Source: Candidatus Zixiibacteriota bacterium
GTDB taxonomy: Bacteria; Zixibacteria; MSB-5A5; GN15; FEB-12
Assembly (NCBI GenBank): GCA_021163775.1
Contig: JAGGTI010000009.1
Span: forward strand, 12,897-76,896
DNA: 64,000 nucleotides
Direction: 5' to 3'
Numbering within the stretch: position 1 is the first letter of the stretch; each line of letters starts with the position of its first letter. The notes beneath the pieces were generated by a model, which was not told the origin of the DNA, did no database searches, and worked only from the letters and a program-made list of their open reading frames with translations. The translations under genes and the position numbers were made by a program. Positions 4,759-47,329 of this stretch are shown here, in pieces.

Positions 4759-4784
4759 AACGATTGTATTATTAGTTGAGAGTT

Positions 4785-4804
4785 GGGAGAGAGTAATCTC
4801 TCCC
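4785..4804 (+). terminator. GC-rich hairpin after flagellin (possible partial terminator, no U tract)
   Basis: GGGAGAGA-gtaa-TCTCTCCC, a perfect 8-bp stem 27 nt after the flagellin stop. It is followed by atctcctcaaaac, which is not U-rich. Confidence 0.3.
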
Positions 4805-4864
4805 ATCTCCTCAAAACTTAAACAAGGTAGATGACAGTGATGTCGAGCTGTTGATAGGAAAAAC

Positions 4865-21005: not shown

Positions 21006-23984
21006 ATGAAACGTGTGATGAAGCTTTTCAGATTCTGCGCCTTGTTGGCGCTGTTTTCTCTTTTATTGGGGAGTGGTGTTGCCGAATTGAGAGCTGAAAC
21101 CGAATCCCCTTCGGCCTTGGATAAGATAGTCCTGAGCATTCCTTCTCAGCAGGTTGTTGGGCGTCCATGGACAGGTCCGGTTCAGTTACTGCTCCTTGAC
21201 GAAAATCTTGATCTTGTTACTAACTACGATCTAAGTGTTGATCCTATCACGCTCACGGTTTCCGATGGTTCGGTTAGCCCGGCTGTGATCAGTGACCCAT
21301 CGCTTTTCTCGGGTGGAATTGTTGATCTGACAGCTTTGGGATTGGTGTACAGTGGGCATACTGGACCGGTGACGATCATCGCCTCCAACTCTACCGTAAT
21401 ATCAAGCGGCATCTTAGTGTTCAATGGCTATGACTTATCTAAAGTAATCGGTCTGGCTAACGACACAGTTTCTACTGTCTATCCTGAGGTAGAAACTTCA
21501 GTGGTCGCCATTGTTGGCAACGATGGCAACCTGCTTGCAATCGAACCACCATCGCTAAAAGCGTATTTTAAATCGGGCGGTGGATCTGTAAAGATAAATT
21601 TTGCGGCTGGGAGTTCAGGACAAGTGGACACTTTGGTGATCAGCTTGCCAACTACTGGGCTTGCCCCAGGAACCGATACCCTTATGCTGGTCACGGAAAG
21701 TACGTATCACCTGGGAAGCGATGATCTCATAACAGGTGATACCATTCGCATCCCGGTCCAGGTATTACCTTCCGCAGGATTGACAGTTGTCTCGGGATCA
21801 CTCAAGCCGGATTCGGTTTATGGCGGGGTTCTATTCGATTTTGCATTGGCTGTTGTCGCCGATGGTATGCAAATCCCGTTTGATAGTGCGGTAACATCGG
21901 TAAGTGTACTTTCCGACACAGATTCGGTATTGGCCGTTATTTTCGATGGTGTCCTTCAGCCTGATATGATCGTAGCCGATACCCTCTTCTATTATAATAT
22001 CCCGGCCGAGATCAGCACTGTGCCTGATATACCGGTTGGTCGCTATGCGCTTCGTACCGACTACTGTTTGCAAATTGGTGGGTTGTCTCTAAGAGCTGTT
22101 GAACCAAGCTGTGATTCTCTCACCATAATTGCACCGGCCGTTTTGACCTATCTGACCTCGACGCTTGTTCCGGATGAGATTGCTTCGGGTGCGGAAACCA
22201 TGTTTCAATTTGAGATTCAATTGGACGACCCTGTTCCGATATATCTGTCTCACAATTATTCGTCATTTGATTTGTCCTGTTCTGGTTTTTCAGTTGAAGC
22301 TCAACTAAGCGTGCCGGGTGATTCTCTGATTCCGGGCAACAATTTGATCCGTACCGAATCGTTGTATATACCTGAAGAACTGCTCGACAGCACACTTTTG
22401 GCACACGTTTCGATAGTGTATAGTCATGCTGGAGTTGGTAACCAGCTTTTGATTGAGACTAATTTTGACGATGAAATTGTCGTTGTTCAAGAATTTCCAC
22501 TCATAAAAATTGTCGAAACGTACATCGATGCGCTGAATACACCCAAGGTTAACACCAGCCAGGCATTTAAGATCGCCTGCCGAGTGGCCAATATCTCCAC
22601 CACCGATTCAAATCCATTCGAACTAATTCTGGCAACTGATGGTAACTCCCAGTTTGATTCCCTGCTCCAGGTTGATGGGATTGCCAGCGGTGGTGATACT
22701 CTTGTCTATTTTGATGTGGTAGCTTCCAGCGATAGTAACCATGCCGAGGTTTTTCGAGTGGAGGTAGCACCGTTTTCTGTTAATCACACTCTGCCAGACG
22801 ACAATGTTGCGATGGCCATTGTACAGCGACCCGCGGAGTTGGCTGTCTCTCATTTGCTTGTAGGGACCGATAAGGGACATGTCAACGTGGGGGAGGAGTT
22901 TGATCTCATTATTGGTCTCGTCAATACTGGTGATGGCGATGCTACTCATGGGCGTTTTCGATTTAATACCAATGGTGTCTGTGTCTATCTTGGTTTGCCG
23001 GGTGATTCTATGATTATCGAGGAAGTAATTCCGGTCGGCAGTATTCGAGGTGTTTCATTTATAGCACCTGATTTTGATACGATGTTCTCAATCGACGTGG
23101 ATTTGATAGAGCTACCGATTGATATTAACAGCGGTCAGACAGCTCTGATAGGGGATACTACTTTCCAATTCAACTTGGAAGTCACGTCACCGGACCTGTC
23201 TCTAAACATTGAACTCGCGGAAGTATCCTCCAATCTGGTAGTAGCGGGAGAGTCCAAGGATCTATTTTTGTTGCGGGCGACCAACCCCGGAATATCTTCG
23301 TTGTCAGATATCGAATTGGAGTCAATGACGTTTCGTTTCAAGGGGGGCGACAACGAGTCCGCCCGTGTTTGGTCATTGGTGGAGGTCGGTTCAACCGGGC
23401 TGTTTTATGGTGACCGGAAAGTAACCAGTTCCACTGCCGGTGAAGATCGTCTTAAGCTGTTGTTCGACAACTTTATGGTGGTTGCCGGGCAAACTATCGA
23501 ACTGAGTTTTCGAATAAAGTCTCTGGCTGATATCAATAGTGAATTTACAATTGTTCTTAATGCGGATGATATCGTTGCAAGGTATGCCACCGGACCACTG
23601 GCTGACCAAACTGTGACGGCAACTGCTCCAGGTGATGAACAGATAGTTGTGGAAGAGGTATACACTGCTGTTCTGGGCAATCTTGAGAATTCATTTGCAG
23701 TTCGCACCAACCCATTTGATCCGATAGCCGGTCCCGCCGAGTTCCGGTACTACCTGGAACAGTCTCAACAAATTCGATTCCTCGTCCTGACTCTATCTGG
23801 TGAACTTGTATATGAGAGGTTGTTTGAGGCTGACGAGATGGGTGGTCAGGCTGGTGAGAATACGCTATTTTGGGATGGTCGCAACGATAAGGGCCAGGTG
23901 GTTCTCAACGGTGTCTACGTGGTTGTGGTTAGTAGCGAAAATAATCGCGAACAAGCCATTTTGAAACTGGCGGTGCTGAAATGA
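21006..23984 (+). CDS. large secreted adhesin-like protein with Ig/CARDB-like modules and a FlgD-Ig/T9SS-type C-terminal domain
   Basis: Signal peptide MKRVMKLFRFCALLALFSLLLGSGVAELRA. Beta-rich repetitive body. C terminus NPFDPIAGPAEFRYYLEQSQQIRFLVLTLSGELVYE..LFWDGRNDKGQVVLNGVYVVVV..LKLAVLK. Confidence 0.7.
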   Translation: MKRVMKLFRFCALLALFSLLLGSGVAELRAETESPSALDKIVLSIPSQQVVGRPWTGPVQLLLLDENLDLVTNYDLSVDPITLTVSDGSVSPAVISDPSLFSGGIVDLTALGLVYSGHTGPVTIIASNSTVISSGILVFNGYDLSKVIGLANDTVSTVYPEVETSVVAIVGNDGNLLAIEPPSLKAYFKSGGGSVKINFAAGSSGQVDTLVISLPTTGLAPGTDTLMLVTESTYHLGSDDLITGDTIRIPVQVLPSAGLTVVSGSLKPDSVYGGVLFDFALAVVADGMQIPFDSAVTSVSVLSDTDSVLAVIFDGVLQPDMIVADTLFYYNIPAEISTVPDIPVGRYALRTDYCLQIGGLSLRAVEPSCDSLTIIAPAVLTYLTSTLVPDEIASGAETMFQFEIQLDDPVPIYLSHNYSSFDLSCSGFSVEAQLSVPGDSLIPGNNLIRTESLYIPEELLDSTLLAHVSIVYSHAGVGNQLLIETNFDDEIVVVQEFPLIKIVETYIDALNTPKVNTSQAFKIACRVANISTTDSNPFELILATDGNSQFDSLLQVDGIASGGDTLVYFDVVASSDSNHAEVFRVEVAPFSVNHTLPDDNVAMAIVQRPAELAVSHLLVGTDKGHVNVGEEFDLIIGLVNTGDGDATHGRFRFNTNGVCVYLGLPGDSMIIEEVIPVGSIRGVSFIAPDFDTMFSIDVDLIELPIDINSGQTALIGDTTFQFNLEVTSPDLSLNIELAEVSSNLVVAGESKDLFLLRATNPGISSLSDIELESMTFRFKGGDNESARVWSLVEVGSTGLFYGDRKVTSSTAGEDRLKLLFDNFMVVAGQTIELSFRIKSLADINSEFTIVLNADDIVARYATGPLADQTVTATAPGDEQIVVEEVYTAVLGNLENSFAVRTNPFDPIAGPAEFRYYLEQSQQIRFLVLTLSGELVYERLFEADEMGGQAGENTLFWDGRNDKGQVVLNGVYVVVVSSENNREQAILKLAVLK

Positions 23985-25825
23985 TTCGCTCCAGTTTCAT
24001 AGTTGTTGTTATTGCTCTAACACTTTTTCCGTGTACTATAATTTGGGGGGGTGATGCCGGTCGTGAAACACCATTTAGTTCGATTGGTGCTGGTGCGCGG
24101 TCAATCGGTATGGGCGGTGGATTTACTTCGTTGGCGACTGATGCCACCGCTATTCACTACAACCCGGCCGGGTTGGCTGATCTTGAGTACCGAGAAGTTG
24201 CCTTCATGCACTCGCTGCTATTCGAGGGCAGTACTTATGATTTTGCGGCCTTGGTCTATCCAATTACCGAGAACCACGGTATCGGATGTGGTATGATGCG
24301 GATAGGTACTGATGATATTATCCGCCGTGAGGATTTCGCTGATCGTGGTCGATTCAACTTCGCCCATACCCAATTGATGCTTGCTTATGGCAGAAACTTC
24401 AGCGACCGGTTGGCTATTGGAATGACCTTGAAAATTATTCACCAGTCGCTGGATAACTACTCTGATTTCGGTGTTGGGGTCGATGCCGGACTTAATATCA
24501 AATTATATCGCAATTTGCATTTGGGAGCGGTAGGCCGCGAACTGTTGCAATCTGAATTGAAACTTGTGACTCTGTCGGAGAAGACACCGCGAGCCGCCAG
24601 TGTTGGCTTGTCGTTGCATGATTTCGCCTTGTCCGAACCAACCAGGGTATCGCTCAATGTTGACCTGGAGAAGAATGATGGGCGGGATATTCAGATGCAC
24701 GCTGGTGTCGAAGTACTATTTCATAAACACTTTGCGCTACGTGTCGGTTATGATCGGGATGAACTCGCCTTTGGAACCGGCTTACAACATGGTCGATTGA
24801 AACTCGACTACGCTTACAAGTTGGTCGACTACGTGCGCGACCTGCATCACGTTTCGATCTCTTTCCTGATTGGCAAATCGACCACCGAATTGATACGGCT
24901 CAGAGAACTGGCCCTTCTACCACCGGAACCGACCGAGGAGGAGAAACAGTTTGCGGCACTGACAACTCAGGCTAATCGTTTTTTTCACCGTTTTCAACTT
25001 GATTCGGCGCGGGTCTATTTCCTGGCCGCTCTTGACATGCAACCTGACAATCAGGAGATCATCGGCACGCTGGCGGCGATTGAGGAATCACGTCGTATTC
25101 AGCGGGAGCAGGAAGAATCCCTTCGGACCGCTCGTGACGATATCACCCAGACACTCAATAGTTTCATTGCACAATCTGAACGCCTCCTGGCCCTTAAATT
25201 GTACCATGCGGCATTAGATATGTTAGGTCTGATCTTTGATATCGACCCGGGTCATGTAATTGCTAACGAACTGCGAGACCGGATTAAACGTGCCCGTGAG
25301 GCTGATATATACAATAGTTTCGAGCAGGCTCGTACAGCCGCCGATGCTGGACAGTGGGGCGAAGCAATGGAAGCGTACAATAGAGTGCTTGAGATTGATA
25401 CGGAGAATCAGGCGGTCCGTACTGCCAAACAGCAGTTGTTGGCTCGTATGGATCTGCCCGAAAGAATCAGGTTTGCTGTCCAGATGTACGAGCAAGGCAA
25501 CCTGATCGAAGCACGAACACGCTTTGAGGCCATCCTGGAAGTGAACCCCAATGAACCGTTAGCCCTCGAATACCTGCGCCGAATCAACACACCCAGGACA
25601 GCACCCGCCCCAAAGCCTACGATCAGCACACTTGAAGATTTGCAGGCGGATCACGAATACTGGGATATGTACCTGGAAGGTTTGCGTTATATGCGCAACA
25701 AGGAGTATCACCAGGCCATTCAGGTGTGGGAGCGGGTGCTCAAAGTTTATCCCAACAACACCAGCACGCTGGAGAACATTCGACAGGCTCGACTGCGTCT
25801 GGGGACTGAGGATAGCGCTAACTGA
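23981..25825 (+). CDS. PorV/PorQ-like outer-membrane beta-barrel fused to a C-terminal TPR domain
   Basis: The N-terminal roughly 300 aa carry GAGARSIGMGGGFTSLATDATAIHYNPAGLADL and alternating beta-strand patterning that ends HHVSISFLIG. The C-terminal roughly 300 aa are TPR-like. The ATGA start overlaps the upstream stop. Confidence 0.6.
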   Translation: MIRSSFIVVVIALTLFPCTIIWGGDAGRETPFSSIGAGARSIGMGGGFTSLATDATAIHYNPAGLADLEYREVAFMHSLLFEGSTYDFAALVYPITENHGIGCGMMRIGTDDIIRREDFADRGRFNFAHTQLMLAYGRNFSDRLAIGMTLKIIHQSLDNYSDFGVGVDAGLNIKLYRNLHLGAVGRELLQSELKLVTLSEKTPRAASVGLSLHDFALSEPTRVSLNVDLEKNDGRDIQMHAGVEVLFHKHFALRVGYDRDELAFGTGLQHGRLKLDYAYKLVDYVRDLHHVSISFLIGKSTTELIRLRELALLPPEPTEEEKQFAALTTQANRFFHRFQLDSARVYFLAALDMQPDNQEIIGTLAAIEESRRIQREQEESLRTARDDITQTLNSFIAQSERLLALKLYHAALDMLGLIFDIDPGHVIANELRDRIKRAREADIYNSFEQARTAADAGQWGEAMEAYNRVLEIDTENQAVRTAKQQLLARMDLPERIRFAVQMYEQGNLIEARTRFEAILEVNPNEPLALEYLRRINTPRTAPAPKPTISTLEDLQADHEYWDMYLEGLRYMRNKEYHQAIQVWERVLKVYPNNTSTLENIRQARLRLGTEDSAN

Positions 25826-25877
25826 TCTCACCTTTTTTAACTGGTTTTTTCTATAGTACGGGGAGAACTTGCAAGCG

Positions 25878-27923
25878 ATGTTTCGTAGCCCAATAAAGGA
25901 GATCAACTCCGAGTTTCCGGCCGAGGAGAAGTATCTCGATAGCATAATGCGGATTGTTCGGGAGGCGTGTGCCTCGGCGGGTGTGCGGCGCAAGGATACA
26001 CAGGCGATCCTGCTGGCTATTGAAGAGGGTGCTACTAATATCATTCGCCACGCCTACCTGTACGACAAGGGTACGCTCCGATTGCGCATCACCATCTATC
26101 GCAAAATGATCGCATTCTCCCTAATCGATTTTGGTCGTTCGTTCAAACCGGAAGGAACCGGTAAGCTCGACCTGGAACGTTTGGTCGATTCCGGCCGACG
26201 TGGCGGGCTTGGCTTCTATATGATCCGGAAAATAATGGATTCGGTGGAGTATGTCTCATGGGCCGGTCAAAACGAACTGCGCATGACGAAACATATCAAG
26301 CGTAATCATAATGAGACGAACCCGCCCTTGTTCCGCCGTATGGTAACTCTGCGGTTCAAGTTCTCGCTCTGGACTTTCCTTATTGTCAGTTTGGTTATTA
26401 CCGGGGCGTTCTCTCTCGTTCAATGGCGCACCACCGATGAGATATATCGACACCTTGACGGTCTGGCACTTGCCCTTGGTGAGACAATTGCTGAACAAGC
26501 GGTACTGGTGATAATAAATGATCGCACTTATATCGAATTCGATGAGTTGGTGGTCAGTTACCAGAAATCCAACGAGTTTTTGCAACAGATTGTTCTGACT
26601 GACTTGTCCGGTATTGTTCTGGCACACTCCGATGATATTCGTAATATTCGCAAGCCGTACCAACTGCCGGATAATGTATCTTCGCTTTTGGGGCAACCTC
26701 AACGCAGTCAGGTGGATGGTCATGATATTAACTTCCTGGCGGTACCGATAACATCGGGCGAACGGCGCTTGGGTACGGTTTATCTGACCTATACTTCCGA
26801 TTTGATTAATCAACACTTGAATGATTCCCGCCGCATTATCCTCATAGCCACTACCGGTCTGATATTGATGGGTGTGATTGGTATCTATTTGCTGTCAAAT
26901 TACTTTGTCCGTCCGATTGTTAATATCACTCGTCGAGTGCGACGCTTCACCCGCGGCGACCTTGAGAGTCAACTGCCGTTGGAGGGAGCCGCCGAGTTTT
27001 TTGAGATTTCCAAGGCATTCAACGAGATGATGACCCGTCTCAAACGCGATCAGGAAAGTGCTGTTGAACGCGAACGTTTAGCCAAAGAAATCGAGGTCGC
27101 CTCTCAAATTCAGAAAACGCTTCTGCCGCAGAACTTGCCTAAGTTACCGGGTTTGGAAATTGATGCCTTTTATCGAGCGGCATCGGTTATCGGTGGGGAC
27201 CTTTATGACGTTTTCGAAATCAGTCCTGGGCGGTGTTGTTTCATTGTGGCTGACGTCTCAGGCAAAGGTGTTCCGGCATCCCTGGTGATGTCCATGCTAC
27301 GGACAGTGATCAAGATTCATGCTGGTCGTGCCGAATCGGCGAAGGATACCCTGATTCTTGTCAACGATTATCTTACGGAGAACATCCCACGCGGCATGTT
27401 TATTACCGTTTTGATGGGTATCTACAATATCAAAGACCGAAAGGTGCGACTGGTATCCGCGGGTCATAATCCGATGTTGTTGTACCGGGCTGAATCGCGG
27501 CGTATTAGTCGTCTCAATCCTTCTGGTATGCCGCTGGGGGTACCGGCAATGCCCGATACGCAGTTTGGAGATACCGTTGAGGAAGTTGAATGCCAACTTG
27601 CGGACGGTGATGCTTTCATACTTTACACCGACGGCATTACCGAGGCGGTCAACCGCGATGGGGCCCAATACGGTCTTGATCGGTTGGAGCAGTTTCTGCA
27701 CGAACGGTGGAGCGCTAAACCGAGCCAGGATATAACTGCACTGACGGCCGATTTGATCAATGAGATTGACACTTTTGCCGGGTTTGCTCATCAGCGTGAT
27801 GACATAACATTCATACTGGGACGAGCTGTGAATCCTGAAGATGCGGTGGCTGAAGCCTCCGATGAAGCGGAAGAATCGGTCGGTAGTCAGACGCTTCTTG
27901 AGGAACCAGACTCCGGTTTGTGA
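25878..27923 (+). CDS. fusion protein: RsbW/SpoIIAB-type serine kinase, 2 TM sensor, HAMP, PP2C/SpoIIE phosphatase
   Basis: N terminus has EEGATNIIRHAY, IDFGRSF and GGLGFYMIRK (HATPase_c anti-sigma kinase boxes). TM helices LWTFLIVSLVITGAFSLV and IILIATTGLILMGVIGIYLL. A HAMP-like linker follows. The phosphatase part has GGDLYDVFE..FIVADVSGKGVPASLVMS..AGHNPMLL..LYTDGITEA. ATG 25878 is preferred over TTG 25869. Confidence 0.85.
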   Translation: MFRSPIKEINSEFPAEEKYLDSIMRIVREACASAGVRRKDTQAILLAIEEGATNIIRHAYLYDKGTLRLRITIYRKMIAFSLIDFGRSFKPEGTGKLDLERLVDSGRRGGLGFYMIRKIMDSVEYVSWAGQNELRMTKHIKRNHNETNPPLFRRMVTLRFKFSLWTFLIVSLVITGAFSLVQWRTTDEIYRHLDGLALALGETIAEQAVLVIINDRTYIEFDELVVSYQKSNEFLQQIVLTDLSGIVLAHSDDIRNIRKPYQLPDNVSSLLGQPQRSQVDGHDINFLAVPITSGERRLGTVYLTYTSDLINQHLNDSRRIILIATTGLILMGVIGIYLLSNYFVRPIVNITRRVRRFTRGDLESQLPLEGAAEFFEISKAFNEMMTRLKRDQESAVERERLAKEIEVASQIQKTLLPQNLPKLPGLEIDAFYRAASVIGGDLYDVFEISPGRCCFIVADVSGKGVPASLVMSMLRTVIKIHAGRAESAKDTLILVNDYLTENIPRGMFITVLMGIYNIKDRKVRLVSAGHNPMLLYRAESRRISRLNPSGMPLGVPAMPDTQFGDTVEEVECQLADGDAFILYTDGITEAVNRDGAQYGLDRLEQFLHERWSAKPSQDITALTADLINEIDTFAGFAHQRDDITFILGRAVNPEDAVAEASDEAEESVGSQTLLEEPDSGL

Positions 27924-27996
27924 TCTAAGTTTTTGTTGCCTGAGGTGGAGCACATCTCCAGTTTTAAGAGTACTTAAAATAGCAGGTGTATTTGGC

Positions 27997-28662
27997 ATGG
28001 AAAATATAAGCATTTCACTCTCTGAAGGTGGACGAGATCGTGAGGTCTCCGAGGTTCGAATCGATGGTGTTATTGACACTTTGACAGCATCGGAATTGGA
28101 GCAGGTGTTTGATTCCCTCTTGGGGAGAAATCGTTATCGTATTGTCGTAGATTTAGCCGGGGTTGATTATATCTCATCGGCCGGTTGGGGTATTTTTATC
28201 TCACACATCAAGGATGTTCGCGACAACGACGGTGATGTCAAACTGGCCGGTATGGTGCCGGATGTACGCGAGATATTCGAACTTCTTGAGTTTGACAAGG
28301 TTCTTCAGTCCTTTGCCTCGGTTGACGAGGCGGCGTCTAAATTCTCCAATACTGGGCCAGGCGGGTCTTCAAAAAAAAAAGAGGCCACCAAAGTTGAGAT
28401 CATAGAAGATCTCGACTCCTCCTCTGACCAGCGTCACAGTGATCCTCCGGCTGATATGTTCGGTCCTGAGACCAATCTCGAAATGTTCGCTCTCAAAATG
28501 CTCAAGGGCGATCCATTTGTGACTATTGGCGAAATTAGGCGCGAATTTGCTACCCAGACTTTGGGTCTAAAAGCGGGTTGGTGGGCGGTGTTCAAGGTTC
28601 TGAAGCGTCACCGTTTACTGAGGCAACGCTCCCGTTTCCAGTATGCCTGGGGTCGGGCCTGA
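27997..28662 (+). CDS. STAS-domain anti-sigma-factor antagonist with a C-terminal extension of about 100 aa
   Basis: MENISISL..VRIDGVIDTLTASELEQVFDSLL..VVDLAGVDYISSAGWGIFI..AGMVPDVREIFELLEFDKVL. The conserved Ser context is present. The track start 27841 lies inside the upstream gene. Confidence 0.85.
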   Translation: MENISISLSEGGRDREVSEVRIDGVIDTLTASELEQVFDSLLGRNRYRIVVDLAGVDYISSAGWGIFISHIKDVRDNDGDVKLAGMVPDVREIFELLEFDKVLQSFASVDEAASKFSNTGPGGSSKKKEATKVEIIEDLDSSSDQRHSDPPADMFGPETNLEMFALKMLKGDPFVTIGEIRREFATQTLGLKAGWWAVFKVLKRHRLLRQRSRFQYAWGRA

Positions 28663-28673
28663 TCTGGTTTTAG

Positions 28674-28702
28674 TTGACATACATCCCTAATCTATTATAC
28701 TA
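28674..28702 (+). promoter_or_regulatory. sigma-70 type promoter upstream of the GGDEF gene
   Basis: TTGACA (28674-28679), 17 nt, TATACT (28697-28702). Confidence 0.4.
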
Positions 28703-28744
28703 CAATAGTATAGAACTCTTAATCGCTCTGAGGTAAGCTTGGTC

Positions 28745-30364
28745 ATGATGCCGGCCGTCCTTATTATAGCTCTGATCATATTTGTAACTGTTCTCGCTGT
28801 TTTGTTGCTAATACGAATGTCCCGAGAGAAACGAGAAAAAGAGGCTCTGGAACAGTTATCTCCAGCCCGGTTGTCAGGTTTGGTTGGGGATTCGCTAAAG
28901 AAGGGCGGGTTGATTGATGTCACCACGCGAATTTCCCAGATTTTGATAGAATCGCTCAGTTGTAAGCGACTTATCTTTCTCCGTCTTAATAATAGCAATC
29001 TCGAATATGAATACGGCTATGGTGTCGCCGAGACCCGACACACTTGGCTTACCCACTGTCCTGATGGTCTGGAAGACAAACTGGACAAAACAGCTTCTCC
29101 GATGCCGGTGTCAGAGTTGGCTGGTATTCTACCCGTACGGCTTTTGGATGCTATCAGGAAATCTATCTGCGATTTATATTTCCCGATCTACTGGGGCGAG
29201 CAACTGTATGGTCTATACTTCCTGGCGGGTAACGATCGGTTGCGACTGCCAGCTCTAAATTTGGCGGTGGCTTCCATCGGTCAGACCTTGTCAGCTATGT
29301 ACCATCTTGATTGGTATCGGGGTCAGCATCAAAAATTGCAGGAACGAGTGAATGAATTACAGAAAGAAGCCCCGGTCAGGTCATCAGAAACGATGTCAAC
29401 CACGTTTGGACTTCTCAAGTTGATCCGACATCATGATTCAGAGACCCTGGTGGGCAGAATTATAGATGAGGTTGGCAGAGATGTTGGGCTGGCTCGGTAT
29501 TCGTTTTTTGTTCCACCGAATAACAACCAGTCCTCGGTGCGAGTGCTTGAGCAGGGTGTTCAGTTTCCGGTGGCTGTACCTCGCAAGGAGCTGATTGAGA
29601 AGATTTTGACCCGTCTGGATCCCGAAAGGGCTACGGAGATATCGACACTGACTGGGAAAGATGACTCGTTGGATACGTTTCGGGACGGCTTGCAACAAGC
29701 CGGGTTGAAGTATTTGACTGCTTTTCCTCTGTTGGATGAGCAGGTGGGAATATTGGCCTGGGATCATAATCAGCCAGCGGAGAAGGTTCTGACGCAGTTA
29801 CAGCGACATTGCGGTCCGGTGTCGGAACTGATGGCTAACGCGGCATCTTTCGAGGAGGTCCTGGGCTTGTCGTACACCGATGGTCTCACCGGTCTGGCCA
29901 ACCATAGGTTTTTCACTCAACGCCTTGATGAAGAAATTGATCGCGCTCGCCGGTATGGTCGATCTTTAGCTCTGATTATTTTTGACATTGATGAATTGAA
30001 AATGGTCAATGACAACTATGGTCATCAGGCTGGTGATTCCGTGATACGGCAAATGGGCCAAATGTTACGAGCATCGGTTCGTTCAAACGATGTAGTAGCC
30101 AGGTACGGTGGCGACGAGTTCTGTATTATTATGCCGGAATCCGATCAAGTCACCTGTGGCCGCTTTATCCGCCGCTTTCAGCAAAAAATCGCCGATACCA
30201 AGTTCAAAATTGACACCGACAACAAGGAATTGATCTGTACCGTTTCTCAAGGGGGGGCAATTTTTCCTGACAATGGTGAGGACTCTAAGCAGTTGATTTA
30301 CGCCGCTGATATGGCCCTTCTTGAGGCCAAAAACGATGGTCGCAACGGGTATCAACTGGCTTGA
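28745..30364 (+). CDS. membrane-anchored diguanylate cyclase (GGDEF) with an uncharacterised N-terminal sensor region
   Basis: N-terminal TM helix. C terminus YTDGLTGLANHRFF..ALIIFDIDELKMVNDNYGHQAGD..RSNDVVARYGGDEFCIIM. GGDEF is intact, with an RxxD I-site 5 residues upstream. Confidence 0.9.
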   Translation: MMPAVLIIALIIFVTVLAVLLLIRMSREKREKEALEQLSPARLSGLVGDSLKKGGLIDVTTRISQILIESLSCKRLIFLRLNNSNLEYEYGYGVAETRHTWLTHCPDGLEDKLDKTASPMPVSELAGILPVRLLDAIRKSICDLYFPIYWGEQLYGLYFLAGNDRLRLPALNLAVASIGQTLSAMYHLDWYRGQHQKLQERVNELQKEAPVRSSETMSTTFGLLKLIRHHDSETLVGRIIDEVGRDVGLARYSFFVPPNNNQSSVRVLEQGVQFPVAVPRKELIEKILTRLDPERATEISTLTGKDDSLDTFRDGLQQAGLKYLTAFPLLDEQVGILAWDHNQPAEKVLTQLQRHCGPVSELMANAASFEEVLGLSYTDGLTGLANHRFFTQRLDEEIDRARRYGRSLALIIFDIDELKMVNDNYGHQAGDSVIRQMGQMLRASVRSNDVVARYGGDEFCIIMPESDQVTCGRFIRRFQQKIADTKFKIDTDNKELICTVSQGGAIFPDNGEDSKQLIYAADMALLEAKNDGRNGYQLA

Positions 30365-30511: not shown

Positions 30512-31483
30512 ATGGAGAGCCGAAACTTGAAACAGATTCTAATTAGTCTTACGGTCATAGTGGTCGGAATGGCCTTGGTGCCACCCACCCAGAGTGCCGA
30601 TTACCTTATTGGGGCAGAGGACGAGCTCCAGATATCGTACTGGCAAGGTCCGGAACGGAACATCCAGGTTCGAGTTGGTCTGGATGGCAAGATTAGTCTC
30701 GACATTGTTGGTCGGATCGAGGCGGCTGGAAAAACAACTACCCAACTCGAGAACGATATTGTCCGACTTATCTCCCGACTCGACAAGAGGATATCCCAGG
30801 CGAGTGTTCGCGTGGTCGAGTTCAATTACAATTACGTGTTTGTGATAGGGCAGATTAATGTTCCGGGGAAGATGACTTTTGAAGAAATACCGGATCTGTG
30901 GACTGTAATCAACGAGTCTGGCGGTGTTACAGATCTCGGCGACTTGAGTCGGGTTAGTATCATTCGAGGTGGTGACCAGGCTGGTCGGGTTGAAGTGGTC
31001 AACCTTCGTGAGGCTCTGGCGTTTGGCAATCTCGAACAATTGCCACGGCTTCGCCGGGGTGACACGATTGAAATCGGACGTACGCCGGGACAAGTATTAG
31101 CCGGTGAGATCGGACGGTTAGCCGAAAAAAAGAGTTTGTTTTATGTTATAGGTGCTGTCGGAAATCCAGGGCCAATCACTTATGAAGAGAATCTTGATGT
31201 TCTCGAAGTGATAGCTCTCGCGGGCGGACCGGGCGAATCGGCCGATCTCAAGCGTACCCAACTAGTAATTAAAGATGGTAACTACGCCCAGACCATCAAT
31301 CTGAATCTTGAGAAGTACATACAGGTCGGAAAACCTGCTCGATACATAATGAAGAAAGAAGACATGGTCATCGTACCGGTTCGCCGCCCTGGTTTTTTCG
31401 ATTCCCGATTGGGTCAGATCGCGGGTTTATTGACTGCGGTTTCAACGGCGTACCTGTTAATTGACCGGATTCAAAATGATTAG
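30512..31483 (+). CDS. polysaccharide export protein (Wza-like; Poly_export plus SLBB domains)
   Basis: Signal/TM segment, then YLIGAEDELQISYWQGPE..VRVGLDGKISLDIVGRIEAAGKTTTQLENDI and SLBB-like repeats (GDTIEIGR.., VIGAVGNPG). Confidence 0.85.
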   Translation: MESRNLKQILISLTVIVVGMALVPPTQSADYLIGAEDELQISYWQGPERNIQVRVGLDGKISLDIVGRIEAAGKTTTQLENDIVRLISRLDKRISQASVRVVEFNYNYVFVIGQINVPGKMTFEEIPDLWTVINESGGVTDLGDLSRVSIIRGGDQAGRVEVVNLREALAFGNLEQLPRLRRGDTIEIGRTPGQVLAGEIGRLAEKKSLFYVIGAVGNPGPITYEENLDVLEVIALAGGPGESADLKRTQLVIKDGNYAQTINLNLEKYIQVGKPARYIMKKEDMVIVPVRRPGFFDSRLGQIAGLLTAVSTAYLLIDRIQND

Positions 31484-31525
31484 GCTTATGAGCAAGGATC
31501 AGTCGCCGAACTTCGGTTTGATCTT

Positions 31526-32683
31526 GTGCTCTGTGCTGACAAACCGCTTATAGAGATTATGGAAACCTTTAGACTCAACAGCAAGCTACGCGAAAAAGAT
31601 CGCGAGTATCTAATTCAGACGAGCAATGATGCTTCACTTGGATCGGTGTCGACTATTGTATATGTCGATGGGATGCGAATCGATACGCATAATTGCCCGC
31701 ATCCTGAAAAAGTAACTCCGAAACAACTTCTGGGAATGGTGAAGAAGGCTCACGGCGAAAGGAAGAAGGAACTTGAAGGGTTGCTTCAGGCGTATCAACG
31801 TGCGGGTGCCGAAAGTGATTCGGATAAGATGTTCTTGCTTTCCAGCGTGCTCTTTCATAAGCGGTTATATTATGAGGCACTCGACCTCCTAAAAGGTGTC
31901 ATTAGTCTGCGAACGGAATATCATCAGGCGTATGACTTGTTGGGACAAACTTATCTGGCTTCGGGACAGGTTGGTCTGGCTGTGGAGTCCGGGCTACGAG
32001 CGGTCGAGCTGTGTCCCAATTACGCTGATTATCGCAACCATCTGGGTGAAGCGTATTTGTCGTCCGGTTCTGCTGGTAAGGCTATTGCCGAATTCGAGGC
32101 GGCGATTGGCGTGAATATGTATTACAGCGAAGCTTACTTCAATCTTGGCTTGGCGCATATTCTGGAAGTATCCAACGCTACCGAACGTTTGCATATTCAA
32201 CAGGGTATAATACGGATTCAGGAATACTTGTCCAAGGCGGGTTTGGTGTATCCTGAGTACCTGAGTCATCGCAATTACCAAGAAGGTCTTAAGGCACTGG
32301 AGATTCAAGATTTTGGGCGGGCACTCAGCTTGCTCCGCAGTGTTGCCGAAGCGCGTAAGGAACTCCGACGCCAGGAGTTTATCTCCATGAACGGGCGCTT
32401 GTTGGCGCATCCTGACACGTGGACAGTCGAAAACCTTGGGAAACAAATCAAGTCGTTACGCACTCAGCTTGAGAAGCACCCCAACTACCTGGATATGCAA
32501 ACCGAGTTGGTATACTGTTATATGGAGCAGGCGGGTATGATCTGGGATCAAGGTCTGGAAATTTGTCAGATAATCATGGAAACACATCCCAACCAGGAAC
32601 GTATTTCCGGAATACTGGAAGGCGCTCTTGATGTCCGTGCCTCGATGTTGGAAACCATAAAAGGCATAAGTAAGGAAGGCTGA
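31526..32683 (+). CDS. TPR repeat protein of the EPS cluster (start uncertain: GTG 31526 or ATG 31559)
   Basis: TPR-like units include YYEALDLLKGVISLRTEYHQAYDLLGQTYLASGQ and AVELCPNYADYRNHLGEAYLSSG. I see no TM helix. Confidence 0.7.
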   Translation: MLCADKPLIEIMETFRLNSKLREKDREYLIQTSNDASLGSVSTIVYVDGMRIDTHNCPHPEKVTPKQLLGMVKKAHGERKKELEGLLQAYQRAGAESDSDKMFLLSSVLFHKRLYYEALDLLKGVISLRTEYHQAYDLLGQTYLASGQVGLAVESGLRAVELCPNYADYRNHLGEAYLSSGSAGKAIAEFEAAIGVNMYYSEAYFNLGLAHILEVSNATERLHIQQGIIRIQEYLSKAGLVYPEYLSHRNYQEGLKALEIQDFGRALSLLRSVAEARKELRRQEFISMNGRLLAHPDTWTVENLGKQIKSLRTQLEKHPNYLDMQTELVYCYMEQAGMIWDQGLEICQIIMETHPNQERISGILEGALDVRASMLETIKGISKEG

Positions 32684-32689
32684 AGCCTT

Positions 32690-33481
32690 ATGACTCGCGC
32701 CAGAATACCGATAACCGAATTCTTCAGTCAGGAATCGCCAATTGCTACCGAATACCGCCGGCTCTTTCAGAACCTGTGTAAGGCTGGGGAAAAGGCTGAA
32801 CTGAAATCAATCCTGATTACATCGGCAGTTACCGGCGAAGGCAAGTCTACCATATCATCGCTCCTGTCGATCACTGCCGCACGTAAAGGAAATCGAACCT
32901 TGTTGATTGACTGCGACATTCGGCGTCCGGCGATTCACGGTTTGTTCCAATTGGAGAGACGTTACGGTCTGGTTGATGTTTTACTCGATGGGGAACCATC
33001 CAAGGATGTCATCAAGAAGACAGCGATTGACCATTTGGATGTCATTACTGCGGGCAAGGTTACACCGCATCCGAGTGAACTGTTTAACACCCGGACAATT
33101 GATGGCATGATCCAGGAACTCAAATTCTACTATGACTACTTGATTCTCGATTCTCCACCGGTCATTCCAGTCTCTGACCCGATGCTTTTGGCCCAAGCTA
33201 TTGATGGTGTACTGATGGTGGTCAAGGCCGGGGAGACCGCTCGTCAGGTGGCACAACGGGCGGTGAATATTATGACAACTAACCGTGCTAATGTGTTGGG
33301 CGTGGTGCTCAATAATGCCCGCAACAGCCTGCCGTACTATTATGACTATTCCAACTACCACTATAATTACAGCCAGACTGGGGATGTGAATGATAACGGC
33401 GGAAAGACTTCCGGTTCGAGTAATTCACAACAGAAAAACAGCAATAAGTTTCCACGTGATGGCAAACACCTTACACGCTAA
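32690..33481 (+). CDS. CpsD/CapB-type bacterial tyrosine kinase (BY-kinase) catalytic protein
   Basis: Walker A ITSAVTGEGKSTISS, LLIDCDIRRP, Walker B YLILDSPP and a C-terminal Tyr cluster LPYYYDYSNYHYNYS. Confidence 0.85.
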   Translation: MTRARIPITEFFSQESPIATEYRRLFQNLCKAGEKAELKSILITSAVTGEGKSTISSLLSITAARKGNRTLLIDCDIRRPAIHGLFQLERRYGLVDVLLDGEPSKDVIKKTAIDHLDVITAGKVTPHPSELFNTRTIDGMIQELKFYYDYLILDSPPVIPVSDPMLLAQAIDGVLMVVKAGETARQVAQRAVNIMTTNRANVLGVVLNNARNSLPYYYDYSNYHYNYSQTGDVNDNGGKTSGSSNSQQKNSNKFPRDGKHLTR

Positions 33482-33499
33482 TCCGACAGGCTGGCCAGC

Positions 33500-34369
33500 A
33501 TGTCGCAGAATCTGCTAACGGTTGATTTAGAAGAGTGGTTCATAGTTGAATCTTTGCAAAACCGCTTCGGTTTTGATGATTGGCTGGGATTGCCTTCCAC
33601 AGTTGAAACTAACTGTAATCGTCTATTGCACCTTATGCACACCCATAACGTGCGGGCGACCTGGTTTGTGGTTGGCTGGTGTGCCGAGCATCACCCGCAC
33701 CTGATTCGGCGTATAGCTGAAGCTGGGCATGAAATTGCCTGTCACAGCTATCGACATCAACGGGTTGACCTGCTTACGCCAGAGGAATTTCGCGAGGATA
33801 CACAACGCGCCAATCGGGCAATTTTTGAGGCTTGTGGAGTCAAACCTGTAGGATATAGGGCACCCAGCTGGTCGCTGTCTGAGCAAGTGAGCTGGGCCTT
33901 TGAAATTCTGGCCGAACTTGGTTTTGAGTATGATAGTTCGATTTTCCCGATCAAGCACGATCTTTATGGAATGCCTGCCGGCCCGAGACAGCTCTTTCGC
34001 ATGAGCTTTGAACACGATCGTTTTTTATATGAACTACCGGCATCGACCGTTCATCGCTGGGGTCAGAATATTCCATTTGGTGGCGGTGGTTACTTGCGCC
34101 ACTCACCCTATTGGTATACTCGACGGCAGGTACGCAGGGCCAATGCGGTCGGAGAATCGGTGGTTGTTTATATCCATCCCTGGGAAATCGATCCGGAACC
34201 TCCACGGATCGACAACTTGTCCTGGCTACAACGCTTTCGAACCTACGGCTCTACCGGGACTTTGCTTGAGAAGCTAAATCGCCTTCTGGCTGATTTTGAG
34301 TTCATAGCGGTAACAGATTATATCCGCCAGACCACCCGAAGTCATATTGGTTTTGAGCGGACAGATTAA
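33500..34369 (+). CDS. polysaccharide deacetylase family protein (DUF3473-type, as found in exosortase/EPS loci)
   Basis: LLTVDLEEWF..ATWFVVGW..GHEIACHSYRH..GYRAPSWS..PFGGGGYLR..VVYIHPWEID. Confidence 0.85.
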   Translation: MSQNLLTVDLEEWFIVESLQNRFGFDDWLGLPSTVETNCNRLLHLMHTHNVRATWFVVGWCAEHHPHLIRRIAEAGHEIACHSYRHQRVDLLTPEEFREDTQRANRAIFEACGVKPVGYRAPSWSLSEQVSWAFEILAELGFEYDSSIFPIKHDLYGMPAGPRQLFRMSFEHDRFLYELPASTVHRWGQNIPFGGGGYLRHSPYWYTRRQVRRANAVGESVVVYIHPWEIDPEPPRIDNLSWLQRFRTYGSTGTLLEKLNRLLADFEFIAVTDYIRQTTRSHIGFERTD

Positions 34370-34561
34370 CCCTAACCAGGGCTTCTTCAAGTCCTTATTG
34401 GTACTAACCTGACAAACAAACAGGTTTTTAGCGCAGAACTTCGCTTTTTAACGGATCGAATACCTGAGAATCCCATTAAATCCTTGACTAATATGTGTAT
34501 AAGGTTTTACCGTAAAACTGATGGTAATGCACTCTGGATTAGGGAAGCAAAGGACTCTAAC

Positions 34562-35230
34562 ATGAAGCGATTTATTATTCTCTGTTTGATGCTGTTGATG
34601 TGTGCTCCGGCGGTTGATGCTCGCAAGAAGCAGAAGAAGGCTGGCACGATTACAGACAGCGTTTATCACGATAACAAGTACGGTTTTGATCTGACCATTC
34701 ATGATAACTGGAAAGTGAAAATCAGCAAGGATAAGGAGAATGTGCGACTCTTGCTGACTCAGAAGAACTTCGCTATTCCATCTGACTACATTAATGCGCC
34801 GAACTATACGTATACGCCGCAGATGATTCTGTATGTTGATACAACGACTTTGGGGGTCCATCCATTCATCGATTCATTGACCAGCGATGATTACAAGTCA
34901 ACACAGAAAAAGGAAATCCTCAAAGAGTTTGAATTCCTCAACGAACCCGACCAGATTCCCAGACGGCGCAGTCGGATGGAAATTGCGGGTGAGTCTGCAT
35001 TGTTGTGGAAAGCCCAGGCCAGGTACGAGAAGGAAGTTGTGGAATCGGCTTCGTCGACATCGGGCAGGATGGTGCACAGAGAATACGGTGGTGCCATAGC
35101 GGCTGTCAAAATAGGCAATAATATTATTCTCTTCCATGTGATGACGGAATGGGAGTTCTTTGAGCCGGTACTATTTGAGGTGTTGCCGATGATTAAGAGT
35201 TTGGTAGTGCCACAGGAAGACGAGGGCTGA
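34562..35230 (+). CDS. secreted hypothetical protein
   Basis: Start moved to ATG 34562, which gives the signal peptide MKRFIILCLMLLMCAPAVDA. I recognise no motif. Confidence 0.5.
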   Translation: MKRFIILCLMLLMCAPAVDARKKQKKAGTITDSVYHDNKYGFDLTIHDNWKVKISKDKENVRLLLTQKNFAIPSDYINAPNYTYTPQMILYVDTTTLGVHPFIDSLTSDDYKSTQKKEILKEFEFLNEPDQIPRRRSRMEIAGESALLWKAQARYEKEVVESASSTSGRMVHREYGGAIAAVKIGNNIILFHVMTEWEFFEPVLFEVLPMIKSLVVPQEDEG

Positions 35231-47134: not shown

Positions 47135-47285
47135 GTCAGGACGGCGGAAAATATGATCCGCCAGTTTAGGAATTTGCTTCCTATATTAGTGAAGTAATTC
47201 CAACTGCGATAGGCAGTCAGCACTAACCACTTGTCCTCTAAGACAAGGTGGTTGAGCGGGTTGCCAATAATGCCCAGCAAATCCT

Positions 47286-47317: not shown

Positions 47318-47329
47318 TTTGCAGGGGAG

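Follow-up and report, generated by a model that had tools for sequence, protein, structure and literature searches.

Why should the gene for a protein with a T9SS-type C-terminal domain (CTD) overlap the gene for an outer-membrane barrel that carries a TPR domain, and what might the resulting pair do? We addressed this question for a locus within a 64-kb stretch of Zixibacteria DNA (the window), where an earlier note had read the two genes as a cargo protein and its dedicated shuttle. To our knowledge, PorV-family barrels and T9SS-type CTDs have been described almost solely from the Bacteroidota secretion machine. Zixibacteria are members of the FCB group.

Organization of the gene pair

The gene of the 992 AA partner protein (the 'cargo' of the earlier note) occupies 21006..23984 of the forward strand and is followed on the same strand by the barrel-TPR gene (614 AA, 23981..25825). 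The junction reads ...CTGAAATGATTCGC, so that the TGA stop of the partner overlaps the ATG of the barrel-TPR gene, and both reading frames and their ATGA overlap are as previously described. A K-stop/ATG junction (AAATGA, or GTGA) was found again at orthologous loci in other genomes, where partner orthologues with 42% and 36% identity occupy the same position.

The partner protein and its C-terminal domain

The partner begins with a putative signal peptide (residues 1 to about 30) containing a hydrophobic, signal-peptide-like segment at residues 4-22. An AF2 model (pLDDT 75.7) predicted an all-β chain of roughly nine β-sandwich domains between residues 38 and 890, approximately, and Foldseek searches with this model returned generic Ig/macroglobulin-domain arrays and no other type of match. 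Thus, of the earlier description of a secreted, Ig/CARDB-like repetitive protein, the signal peptide and the Ig-like array were retained, but no CARDB match was obtained for the 992 AA protein itself. The partner is presumably exposed at the cell surface.

The CTD (residues 893-992; 23682..23981, forward strand) is a predicted T9SS type-A/FlgD-Ig-like β-sandwich with the motifs NPFDP...WDGRN..G..V.NGVY...LKLAVLK. Its individual scores were below the curated thresholds: it matched Pfam FlgD_ig with 23 bits (gathering score 27) and the C-terminus of the NCBIfam PorZ model, and a TIGR04183 search with the 992 AA protein gave no match at E<=0.01. An iterated CTD HMM recovered it with an E-value of 1.7e-21, and the same HMM also recovered a bona fide TIGR04183 protein (40.8 bits, cut-off 23) encoded elsewhere in the window, at 47231-50200. 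Taken singly, the CTDs of proteins paired with such barrels matched the PorU C-terminus in 16 of 18 cases, PorZ in 13 and TIGR04183 in 13 (best E-value 4.5e-11). A profile built from all 18 partnered CTDs and compared with the T9SS CTDs in the PDB aligned with the whole length of the CTDs of PorU (6za2_A, E 3.6e-8) and PorZ (5m11_A, E 1.8e-6), whereas cleaved cargo CTDs gave E-values of only 0.05-0.9. As a group, the partnered CTDs clearly belong, judged by their joint profile, to the T9SS CTD family, in agreement with the FlgD-Ig/T9SS-style reading of the earlier note, although this CTD alone falls short of the curated models.

PorU and PorZ keep their CTDs, by which they bind PorV and PorQ, respectively. 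The resemblance of the partnered CTDs to these retained domains therefore favors a stable anchor of the PorZ-PorQ kind over a shuttle, and the shuttle originally suggested for this pair fits the data less well. That proposal holds that a T9SS cargo is passed to a dedicated PorV-like shuttle, that the TPR domain is a periplasmic scaffold docking the barrel to T9SS parts or the cell wall, in the way of PorE with PorP, and that the neighboring signalling genes are unrelated. It draws on the T9SS type of the CTD, the TIGR04183 protein in the same window, the FCB affiliation of the host, the membership of the barrel in the PorV/PorQ family with PorV as its best structural match (below), and the precedent of the complex of PorE (with its TPR), PorP and a type B CTD protein (PMC9143113). 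Weighed against the distance from cleaved cargo CTDs, and against further points given below, we consider it unlikely.

The barrel and its TPR domain

The N-terminal half of the 614 AA protein consists of a hatch, or plug, segment (residues 27-67; 24059..24181, forward strand) and a β-barrel of the PorV/FadL type (residues 71-297; 24191..24871, forward strand) that was assigned by profile and by Foldseek. Residues 30-295 matched the PorV/PorQ family model NF033709 with 113.7 bits (cut-off 90), and the N-terminal 70 residues, the only part that aligned, matched Pfam UPF0164 (PF03687) with 27.7 bits (gathering score 21.4). The scores were far from the equivalog cut-offs for PorV (NF033710, 35.4 of 250 bits), PorQ (NF033711, 66.7 of 220) and PorV2 (96.6 of 325), and the PorP/SprF family (TIGR03519) was rejected with 21.6 bits against 90.55. 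In the AF2 model (pLDDT 85.4), a FadL-like barrel with an N-terminal hatch was predicted, for which the best PDB matches were PorV chains 8gl6_F (E 1.4e-12, TMt 0.63) and 6h3i_F (E 1e-10), followed by TodX, CymD and FadL (E ~1e-8). The earlier view that the first 300 residues or so form a PorV/PorQ-like barrel and not a member of an unrelated family was therefore borne out by both sequence profiles and the predicted structure.

Within the hatch lies the motif that shows the strongest conservation in the family, GAGARxxGMGG...YNPAGL, in which Y60, N61 and P62 are invariant alignment columns, and the model places short helices ahead of the first barrel strand. Mutants of the FadL NPA motif figure among the structural matches of the barrel, and the YNPAGL motif corresponds to the NPA motif of FadL-type proteins and may play the same role here.

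The remainder of the protein is a TPR domain (residues 301-611; 24881..25813, forward strand), as had been proposed for its last 300 residues: TPR_2 matched with 55 bits (cut-off 27) and TPR_14 with 47 bits, and the AF2 model is helical from residue 301 to 611. Conservation within this tail is highest in the last repeat (residues ~551-611, W561...R606), with invariant residues clustered towards the C-terminus. The tail leaves an even-stranded barrel on its periplasmic side, a topology which would place it in the periplasm. Zixibacteria, GN15 and FCB MAGs yielded no fewer than 392 homologues of full length (about 605-615 AA), a number that puts the architecture far beyond chance. It is not rare, and hundreds of entries already bear the NCBI name 'PorV/PorQ family protein'.

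Distribution of the pair

The partner/barrel pair with its 4-bp overlap is kept across Zixibacteria, down to about 36-42% identity of the cargo, and pairs of a CTD protein and a PorV-family barrel are frequent in many phyla, as the reading in the note required. When barrels with an extension were surveyed for adjacent CTD proteins, a CTD ORF lay directly upstream of 26 of 27, compared with 23 of 50 barrel-only relatives and a background of 87 CTD matches among 688 ORFs of >=300 AA in the examined loci. Several paralogous barrels with different partners can occur in one genome (P0110 and L064 on one chromosome, L008 and L060 in one MAG), and some other barrels of the family pair with TonB-dependent receptors.

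The CTD presumably binds the barrel, the assessment covering the adjacency and overlap of the two genes. A mirror-tree comparison of CTD and barrel over 13 Zixibacteria loci gave no excess co-variation (r 0.43, partial 0.08). Some relatives have FlgD_ig fused at the periplasmic C-terminus of the barrel, and barrel+FlgD_ig+OmpA fusions also exist; the C-terminal fusions hint that contact between CTD and barrel could be periplasmic.

Pairs of the same kind were present in Spirochaetia, Elusimicrobia, WOR-3 and Goldbacteria MAGs, phyla not known for T9SS. The T9SS core genes looked for (gldK/L/M/N, sprA/sov, sprE, sprT and porU) were not found in the 64-kb window or in the flanks of about 10 kb on related contigs, and nothing on them emerged from the literature. 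The pair may depend on a T9SS, but its occurrence in Spirochaetia, Elusimicrobia and Goldbacteria suggests that the CTD-barrel unit may also work without one. Both this distribution of the pair and the barrel-TPR protein and the failure to find core genes in the window and flanks argue against a shuttle.

A second alternative takes the barrel for a FadL-like channel admitting a small hydrophobic or amphipathic ligand, with the TPR domain docking a Cache domain beneath it (see below) for direct sensing of what is imported. The CTD protein would be an accessory at the surface that captures the ligand or generates it, carbohydrate-binding modules being one possible means. Cache domains are typically small-ligand binders. 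The strong matches to FadL, TodX and CymD and the retention of a hatch of the FadL type, in which the NPA motif is invariant, agree with a channel, as do the pairing of other family members with TonB-dependent receptors and a Spirochaetia partner that bears Malectin and CBM9 domains and lies beside LacI and GH30/GH43 genes. In addition, UPF0164/FadL-like proteins of T. pallidum with TPR-bearing tails have been interpreted as nutrient importers (PMC8407342). The fold cannot separate a channel from an anchor because PorV shares both fold and hatch, but the near-universal CTD partner (26 of 27) is unexpected for a simple channel, and we judge this alternative to be improbable.

The Cache-HAMP transducer

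The most informative feature of the locus is one absent from the earlier note, a conserved inner-membrane transducer with an sCache_3_2-HAMP core, encoded directly downstream of the barrel-TPR gene (25869..27923, forward strand; the TTG start codon is uncertain). Pfam and NCBIfam matches together with TM prediction gave the order HATPase_c_2 (residues 16-141, an RsbW/SiaB-like kinase domain), TM helix (159-177), sCache_3_2 (~178-322; 26.6 bits, just below the cut-off of 28.4), TM helix (323-341), HAMP (341-392) and a C-terminal SpoIIE/PP2C phosphatase (453-650). The two predicted TM helices flanking the Cache domain place it in the periplasm.

An sCache_3_2-HAMP transducer adjoined barrel-TPR genes in 23 of 29 loci and barrel-only genes in 0 of 50, and the 23 strong Cache-HAMP matches in about 1.6 Mb of loci all lay beside barrel-TPR genes; since most of the positive loci are Zixibacteria orthologues within a 20-kb syntenic block, independent support amounts to about 6-7 lineages. 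The Cache-HAMP regions of the Zixibacteria protein and of its counterpart beside a Spirochaetia barrel are homologous (29% identity, E 1e-17), as are the TPR tails of the two groups (E 2e-7). A shuttle leaves this exclusive association between TPR-tailed barrels and Cache-HAMP proteins unexplained.

With the sCache_3_2-HAMP region constant, the output domain swaps by lineage. PP2C with STAS was found in Zixibacteria, in Spirochaetia (L022/L088) and at L085 and L086, a Guanylate_cyc domain in Elusimicrobia (L021) and also in Goldbacteria (L089), where it is encoded two genes upstream, and HisKA-HATPase_c in Endomicrobia (L035). Two barrel-TPR loci (L087 and L090) had no transducer, and in three Elusimicrobia loci (L040, L050 and L055) it is replaced by a FliF_C-FliG-like protein.

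When distance matrices were compared over the 13 Zixibacteria loci, the TPR tail correlated best with the Cache domain and vice versa (r 0.78, partial 0.44), with the OPX protein described below correlating nearly as strongly with the tail (0.76/0.43). This is weak support for a link between TPR tail and Cache domain, which we infer to be in contact.

Partner-switch, c-di-GMP and exopolysaccharide genes

The next gene (27841..28662, forward strand; translation probably begins at the ATG at 27997) encodes a STAS-domain protein (STAS 61 bits, TIGR00377 61 bits) that is conserved in position and is, by sequence, a candidate anti-sigma antagonist or SiaC-like partner-switch substrate. It is followed by a gene for a membrane-anchored, SiaD-like GGDEF diguanylate cyclase (28739..30364, forward strand; GGDEF 159 bits), which succeeds PP2C and STAS in Zixibacteria loci only. 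This gene may have its own promoter; a promoter-like site at 28674-28701 agrees with the sigma-70 consensus at 11 of 12 positions, a fit not above chance overall.

Exopolysaccharide export and modification genes, assigned by Pfam and NCBIfam matches, occupy 30512..34369 of the same strand and encode a short OPX (Poly_export+SLBB, 323 AA, 30512-31483), a TPR protein (31526-32683), a BY-kinase (32690-33481; TIGR01007, 171 bits) and an XrtA-type polysaccharide deacetylase (33500-34369; TIGR03006, 307.8 bits, cut-off 276). Their order is conserved in Zixibacteria but is not kept with barrel-TPR genes outside the phylum.

These neighbors raise a third alternative, that the barrel-TPR protein is an outer-membrane exopolysaccharide porin, either an analogue of PelB, BcsC or PgaA in reversed order or the barrel partner of the short OPX. 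Short OPX proteins do need a barrel partner (PMC9601211), and in Zixibacteria the barrel-TPR gene lies 4.7 kb upstream of the short OPX, BY-kinase and deacetylase genes, with the OPX/TPR correlation noted above (r 0.76). Known polysaccharide porins, however, have an AlgE-like barrel of 16-18 strands preceded by a TPR domain (PMC9601211), whereas the protein here is a plugged barrel of the PorV/FadL type with its TPR at the C-terminus, and outside Zixibacteria it keeps the CTD partner and the transducer and not the exopolysaccharide genes. With the domain order reversed and a barrel of another type, both the PelB/BcsC/PgaA class and the class of OPX-partner barrels (EpsX) were rejected, and we regard a porin as highly improbable.

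Proposed function

The reading that we prefer is a module of surface protein, anchor barrel and transducer, here feeding the c-di-GMP and exopolysaccharide genes, and in weighing it we are evenly divided between acceptance and doubt. The β-sandwich partner with its T9SS-type CTD and the PorV/PorQ-family outer-membrane barrel would form a dedicated pair, in which the partner most likely stays bound to the barrel for good by its uncleaved CTD, as in PorQ-PorZ and PorV-PorU, instead of being shuttled. The fused TPR domain would hang in the periplasm and link the pair to the sCache_3_2 domain of the transducer, the direction of signalling presumably being from the surface to the cytoplasm. In the Zixibacterium the transducer would be a kinase/PP2C partner-switch enzyme acting on the STAS protein, with the SiaD-like cyclase and exopolysaccharide export genes downstream. 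Given this gene order, the module would tie c-di-GMP and the making of matrix to what happens at the surface protein. In other lineages the cytoplasmic output might instead be a nucleotide cyclase or a histidine kinase.

More generally, and only tentatively, the combination of CTD protein, barrel-TPR and sCache_3_2-HAMP transducer could represent an undescribed trans-envelope sensory device present in at least four phyla, with a swappable output and a CTD-barrel unit that may work without a T9SS; the TPR arm would then relay occupancy or the mechanical state of the surface protein to the Cache domain. The PorV family contains many paralogues, each beside its own CTD protein, and a TPR domain in the periplasm has been acquired by one branch, which is widespread; this branch alone is accompanied by an inner-membrane Cache-HAMP transducer, the output of which can be exchanged. 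If the proposed contacts are true, this would be a new way in which diderm bacteria connect signalling in the cytoplasm, here c-di-GMP and matrix production, with a protein at the surface, and recognition between CTD and barrel would reach beyond secretion. If they are not real, the pair would still be a well-conserved, ordinary dedicated anchor pair.

Comparison with known systems

Among the nearest known systems are the PorQ-PorZ and PorV-PorU pairs, the attachment complex of the P. gingivalis T9SS having been named in the literature (PMC9143113). Here, too, a PorV/PorQ-family barrel of the 14-strand type is paired with a large protein, and the partnered CTD profile fits PorU and PorZ best among the T9SS CTDs in the PDB. 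The barrel differs from PorV and PorQ in falling far under their equivalog cut-offs and in its TPR domain of about 310 AA, which they lack, and the partner is neither a C25 sortase nor a β-propeller protein. Furthermore, the genes here overlap, and the pair is tied to a Cache-HAMP transducer.

Precedents for a CTD protein that goes with a barrel of its own and with a TPR protein in the periplasm are PorE-PorP-PG1035 and SprF-SprB, in which a type B CTD protein sits beside its own anchoring barrel with a periplasmic TPR component attached (PMC9143113). The present barrel family is not PorP/SprF, however, and the CTD is type A/FlgD-Ig-like, not type B; the barrel itself carries the TPR domain as a fusion, whereas that of PorE is on a separate lipoprotein, and there is no OmpA_C domain here.

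For the cytoplasmic part, SiaA and SiaD gave the best-named NCBIfam matches, and the SiaABCD system of P. aeruginosa likewise combines a HAMP-bearing PP2C phosphatase and an RsbW-like kinase with a substrate of the STAS type and a GGDEF cyclase. In our locus the kinase is fused to the phosphatase, and the scores are far under the equivalog cut-offs (SiaA 71.9 bits against 700, SiaD 147.2 bits against 290); membership in SiaABCD was therefore rejected, the domain logic alone being common to both. We know of no coupling of SiaABCD to an outer-membrane barrel. In cell-surface signalling of the FecA-FecR type, which uses TonB-dependent transducers, an outer-membrane barrel with a periplasmic extension lies beside an inner-membrane signalling protein, but the likeness is one of logic only, the 22-stranded TBDT barrel, N-terminal signalling domain, TonB dependence and ECF sigma factor output being lacking here.

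A further parallel in architecture is provided by the T. pallidum proteins TP0548, TP0859 and TP0865, which belong to the same Pfam family (UPF0164) and were modelled as barrels with a C-terminal periplasmic α-helical extension bearing a TPR motif (PMC8407342). Their tails are three-helix bundles, they are understood as importers, and a CTD partner or transducer has not been reported for them. If the contacts proposed here are real, the module also provides a hypothesis, open to testing, on the TPR tails of treponemal FadL-like vaccine candidates, which have lacked an explanation.

The CTD protein and the barrel-TPR protein

The ORF at 21006..23984 (+ strand) encodes a 992 aa protein that was 100% identical to the NCBI entry 'hypothetical protein J7J98_00610 [candidate division Zixibacteria bacterium]', and the window itself comes from a Zixibacteria MAG. 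The N-terminus of this protein is predicted to be signal-peptide-like, and an AF2 model (pLDDT 75.7) gave an all-beta fold with approximately nine beta-sandwich domains in a chain, for which Foldseek returned generic Ig/macroglobulin-domain arrays only and no functional lead. The last ~100 residues contain the motifs NPFDP...WDGRN..G..V.NGVY...LKLAVLK, scored 23 bits against Pfam FlgD_ig (gathering score 27), and also matched the C-terminus of the PorZ model. The C-terminal domain (CTD) is classed as a member of the T9SS type-A/FlgD-Ig superfamily, though this copy is sub-threshold.

An ATGA overlap joins this ORF to that of the 614 aa barrel-TPR protein (23981..25825, + strand). Following a signal peptide, the latter consists of a hatch segment (GAGARSIGMGG...YNPAGL, with Y60, N61 and P62 invariant in 40 homologues), a barrel at residues 71-297 and helices at residues 301-611 (AF2 model, pLDDT 85.4), and the tail contains TPR matches (TPR_2, 55 bits) and an invariant repeat, W561...R606. 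The barrel scored 113.7 bits against the NCBIfam model of the PorV/PorQ family (NF033709, cut-off 90) and stayed under the NCBIfam cut-offs for PorV (35.4/250 bits), PorQ (66.7/220) and PorP/SprF (21.6/90.55). Among solved structures it matched PorV from the F. johnsoniae translocon best (chains 8gl6_F, E 1.4e-12, and 6h3i_F, E 1e-10), followed by TodX, CymD and FadL. The barrel is a PorV/PorQ family member, but neither PorV nor PorQ. The earlier note's description of a secreted repetitive CTD protein overlapping by ATGA a PorV/PorQ-like barrel with a TPR tail was therefore accurate.

The barrel-plus-TPR architecture is already abundant in databases, with at least 392 full-length homologues (~605-615 aa, 42-93% identity), and those that are named are called 'PorV/PorQ family protein', their sources being MAGs of Zixibacteria, GN15 or FCB. 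The family as a whole numbers ~12,000 members. In other Zixibacteria genomes, four loci share the order pheST-zapBA-rny-ymdB-folD, CTD protein of ~1000 aa and barrel-TPR, followed by transducer, STAS, GGDEF, OPX, TPR protein, BY-kinase and XrtA-type deacetylase. In the Zixibacteria loci, orthologues of the CTD protein aligned from end to end at 42% and 36% identity, and the K-stop/ATG junction between the two genes was kept as AAATGA or GTGA. Two 'short cargo' forms were rejected as artefacts: a stretch of N masks the 5' end of the 337 aa form in L002 (CP070824.1), and the ORF in L005 begins 37 nt from the contig end.

CTD-barrel pairs across phyla

A scan of a genome collection with alignment A1 yielded 80 loci (alignment A2 was too divergent for that scan), in which ORFs were called and searched with a CTD HMM built by iteration from the CTD of the 992 aa protein. 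This HMM found 100-102 ORFs, with the domain at the extreme C-terminus in ~95. Among barrels extended C-terminally by 170 aa or more (extended barrels, n=29), a CTD ORF lay directly upstream on the same strand in 26 of the 27 testable cases, and among barrels without such an extension (barrel-only, n=52) in 23 of 50 testable cases; for comparison, the loci contain 688 ORFs of 300 aa or more, of which only 87 carry the CTD. In other Zixibacteria the pairing is conserved in both gene order and junction. CTD-barrel pairs were seen in MAGs labelled Zixibacteria, Ignavibacteria, Elusimicrobia, Spirochaetia, WOR-3, Delongbacteria, Goldbacteria and Bacteroidota. Several barrel paralogues with different partners can occur within one genome (CP070756.1 has both P0110 and L064; L008 and L060 are paralogues of one MAG), which fits dedicated barrels. 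Across all loci, every barrel scored below the PorV and PorQ equivalog cut-offs, and neither PorU nor PorZ was found.

A second barrel-only class, in Zixibacteria and Ignavibacteria, follows a TonB-dependent/SusC-like receptor of ~1110 aa rather than a CTD protein; PorU was considered for this upstream protein and rejected. The receptor (~1110-1170 aa) recurrently lies 80-120 bp upstream of a ~310 aa PorV/PorQ-family barrel (195 bits), and the set, which in L064 (6471-13063, CP070756.1) has a 732 aa unannotated protein in third place, is also present in L024, L036, L041, L042, L047, L049, L051, L060, L062, L076, L082 and L083. We know of no description of a TBDT as the partner of a PorV-family barrel.

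Other PorV-family barrels (P0325, P0326, P0245 and P0330, ~410 aa; P0370, 534 aa; P0353 and P0382; L058, 5243-6703) are fused at the C-terminus to FlgD_ig (residues ~315-380), FlgD_ig plus OmpA_C (one case), fn3 or SH3_3. The FlgD_ig fusions join a barrel to the Ig type that makes up the partner CTDs, a Rosetta-stone hint that barrel and CTD are in contact, and the position of FlgD_ig at the periplasmic C-terminus means that such contact could be periplasmic.

The Cache-HAMP transducer

The neighbour overlooked in the earlier note is a transducer encoded directly after the barrel-TPR gene (25869..27923). It starts with HATPase_c_2, continues with a TM helix, sCache_3_2 and a second TM helix, and ends with HAMP and SpoIIE/PP2C. 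The Cache domain (residues 178-322) lies between the two TM helices and is thus predicted to be periplasmic. Next come a STAS protein (27841-28662) and a GGDEF cyclase that resembles SiaD. The STAS protein has a ~100 aa C-terminal extension here and in L003, L013 and L020 (~227-273 aa in total), is ~130 aa long in L001 and L002, and has the extension as a separate small ORF in L006, L008 and L009.

Adjacency of barrel-TPR and transducer extends outside Zixibacteria, with differing outputs. Carriers of the module include Zixibacteria CP070824.1, CP070756.1 and CP070839.1, the Spirochaetia contig ERZ25039548:contig_12779, Elusimicrobia JACRDM010000077 and Goldbacteria GCA_026414685.1. In Spirochaetia (L022, L088), sCache_3_2-HAMP-SpoIIE overlaps the barrel gene by 4 bp and is followed by STAS and HATPase_c_2, with a Malectin+CBM9+CTD partner. 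An sCache_3_2-HAMP-Guanylate_cyc protein adjoins barrel-TPR in Elusimicrobia (L021, partner Kelch+CTD), and Endomicrobia (L035) have sCache_3_2-HAMP-HisKA-HATPase_c with a partner CTD protein that runs off the locus end and measures 3089 aa or more, then a 123 aa CTD ORF. Two unclassified loci with giant CTD partners encode kinase-Cache-HAMP-PP2C (L085) and kinase-HAMP-PP2C (L086) fusions, each followed by STAS; in the L086 fusion sCache_3_2 was not among the Pfam matches, and the Cache-HAMP HMM matched. In Goldbacteria (L089), HAMP-Guanylate_cyc lies two genes upstream on the same strand, and the partner is a 1488 aa Por_Secre_tail protein. After the Spirochaetia module of L088 (5115-15506, 1.23-Mb contig) come a LacI-family regulator and GH30/GH43/GH59-type glycoside hydrolases, which together with the Malectin/CBM9 partner suggests a polysaccharide-sensing role in this lineage.

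All 23 strong matches of the Cache-HAMP HMM in the loci (~1.6 Mb) adjoin a barrel-TPR gene. This neighbour accompanied 23/29 extended barrels vs 0/50 barrel-only relatives, most positive loci being Zixibacteria orthologues in a long syntenic block, such that independent support amounts to ~6-7 lineages. The transducer was absent beside the barrels of L087 and L090. Elusimicrobia L040 (11413-13098), L050 (10492-11214) and L055 (11550-14009) have barrels with ~220 aa TPR tails, preceded by giant CTD proteins (at least 2700-3280 aa) and followed by a protein with FliF_C (YscJ_FliF_C), FliG_M and FliG_C domains, to which L055 adds an N-terminal HisKA-HATPase_c.

Between Zixibacteria and Spirochaetia, both the Cache-HAMP regions (29% identity, E 1e-17) and the TPR tails (E 2e-7) were homologous. 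A conserved periplasmic sensor with swapped outputs is a classical signature of a conserved interaction through the periplasmic part, and the TPR tail is the sole element specific to the extended barrel branch that is predicted to be periplasmic. In a mirror-tree analysis of 13 Zixibacteria loci, TPR tail and Cache domain were reciprocal best correlates (r 0.78; partial 0.44) with OPX nearly tied, a weak and non-exclusive signal, and there was no excess CTD-barrel co-variation.

T9SS and exopolysaccharide genes

None of the T9SS core genes was seen in the window, in its flanking DNA or in the loci retrieved, and a literature search for T9SS in candidate phyla, among them Zixibacteria and Elusimicrobia, found nothing useful. 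A genuine TIGR04183 protein is, however, encoded in the window at 47231-50200 (40.8 bits, cut-off 23). This second secreted protein, of 989 aa, combines BACON_2 with a bona fide CTD of T9SS type A (Por_Secre_tail, 34 bits), and is followed by a 424 aa ORF (50287-51561) that matched no family and gave no match in the barrel search. This FCB-group organism with T9SS-type CTD proteins also encodes an unusually long flagellin (726 aa, of which ~500 aa separate the two terminal helical domains) and a likewise unusually long FliD (780 aa) at 2578-7207, downstream of a glycosyltransferase-TPR fusion gene (4-2262). A promoter/terminator scan gave nothing above chance.

The OPX protein (30512-31483) is short, at 323 aa with Poly_export and two SLBB domains, and, following the reasoning of PMC9601211, may depend on another protein as its barrel in the outer membrane; the same cluster contains a 248 aa ORF (34484-35230) without family match. 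The barrel-TPR protein is unlikely to be an EPS porin, as known EPS porins are 16-18-stranded with N-terminal TPRs (PMC9601211), whereas its own tail lies C-terminal to a PorV-like barrel, and EPS genes do not accompany the module outside Zixibacteria.

Anchor or shuttle

A profile of 18 barrel-partnered CTDs (A4) was searched against all PDB sequences. Matches covered nearly the whole domain for the CTDs of PorU (6za2_A, 1056-1154, E 3.6e-8) and PorZ (5m11_A, 672-758, E 1.8e-6), and were partial for FlgD Ig domains (E 2.6e-8) and for cleaved cargo CTDs (RgpB 5hfs_A, 8glj_D, 8glk_D; E 0.05-0.9). Searched singly, 16/18 of these CTDs matched the PorU C-terminus, 13/18 PorZ (best 3.5e-16) and 13/18 TIGR04183. 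The T9SS proteins PorU and PorZ keep their CTDs and are bound to PorV and PorQ as parts of the attachment complex. That complex is named in PMC9143113. Resemblance of the partnered CTDs to those of PorU and PorZ thus favours a stable anchor over a shuttle, and of the 'dedicated cargo/shuttle pair' proposed earlier, 'dedicated' agrees with the paralogues and their different partners, while 'shuttle' fits less well with CTDs that match cleaved cargo more weakly.

We propose that the CTD protein and its PorV-family barrel form a dedicated anchor pair, which the fused periplasmic TPR arm appears to connect to the Cache-HAMP transducer; in this genome the transducer would act through a partner switch on c-di-GMP synthesis and on exopolysaccharide genes. 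The analysis shows family membership and gene association, and all mechanistic steps of this model are inferred from these. The PorE (TPR...OmpA)-PorP-PG1035 and SprF-SprB complexes are known examples of a CTD protein anchored by a dedicated barrel next to it, with a TPR protein of the periplasm bound to that barrel (PMC9143113).
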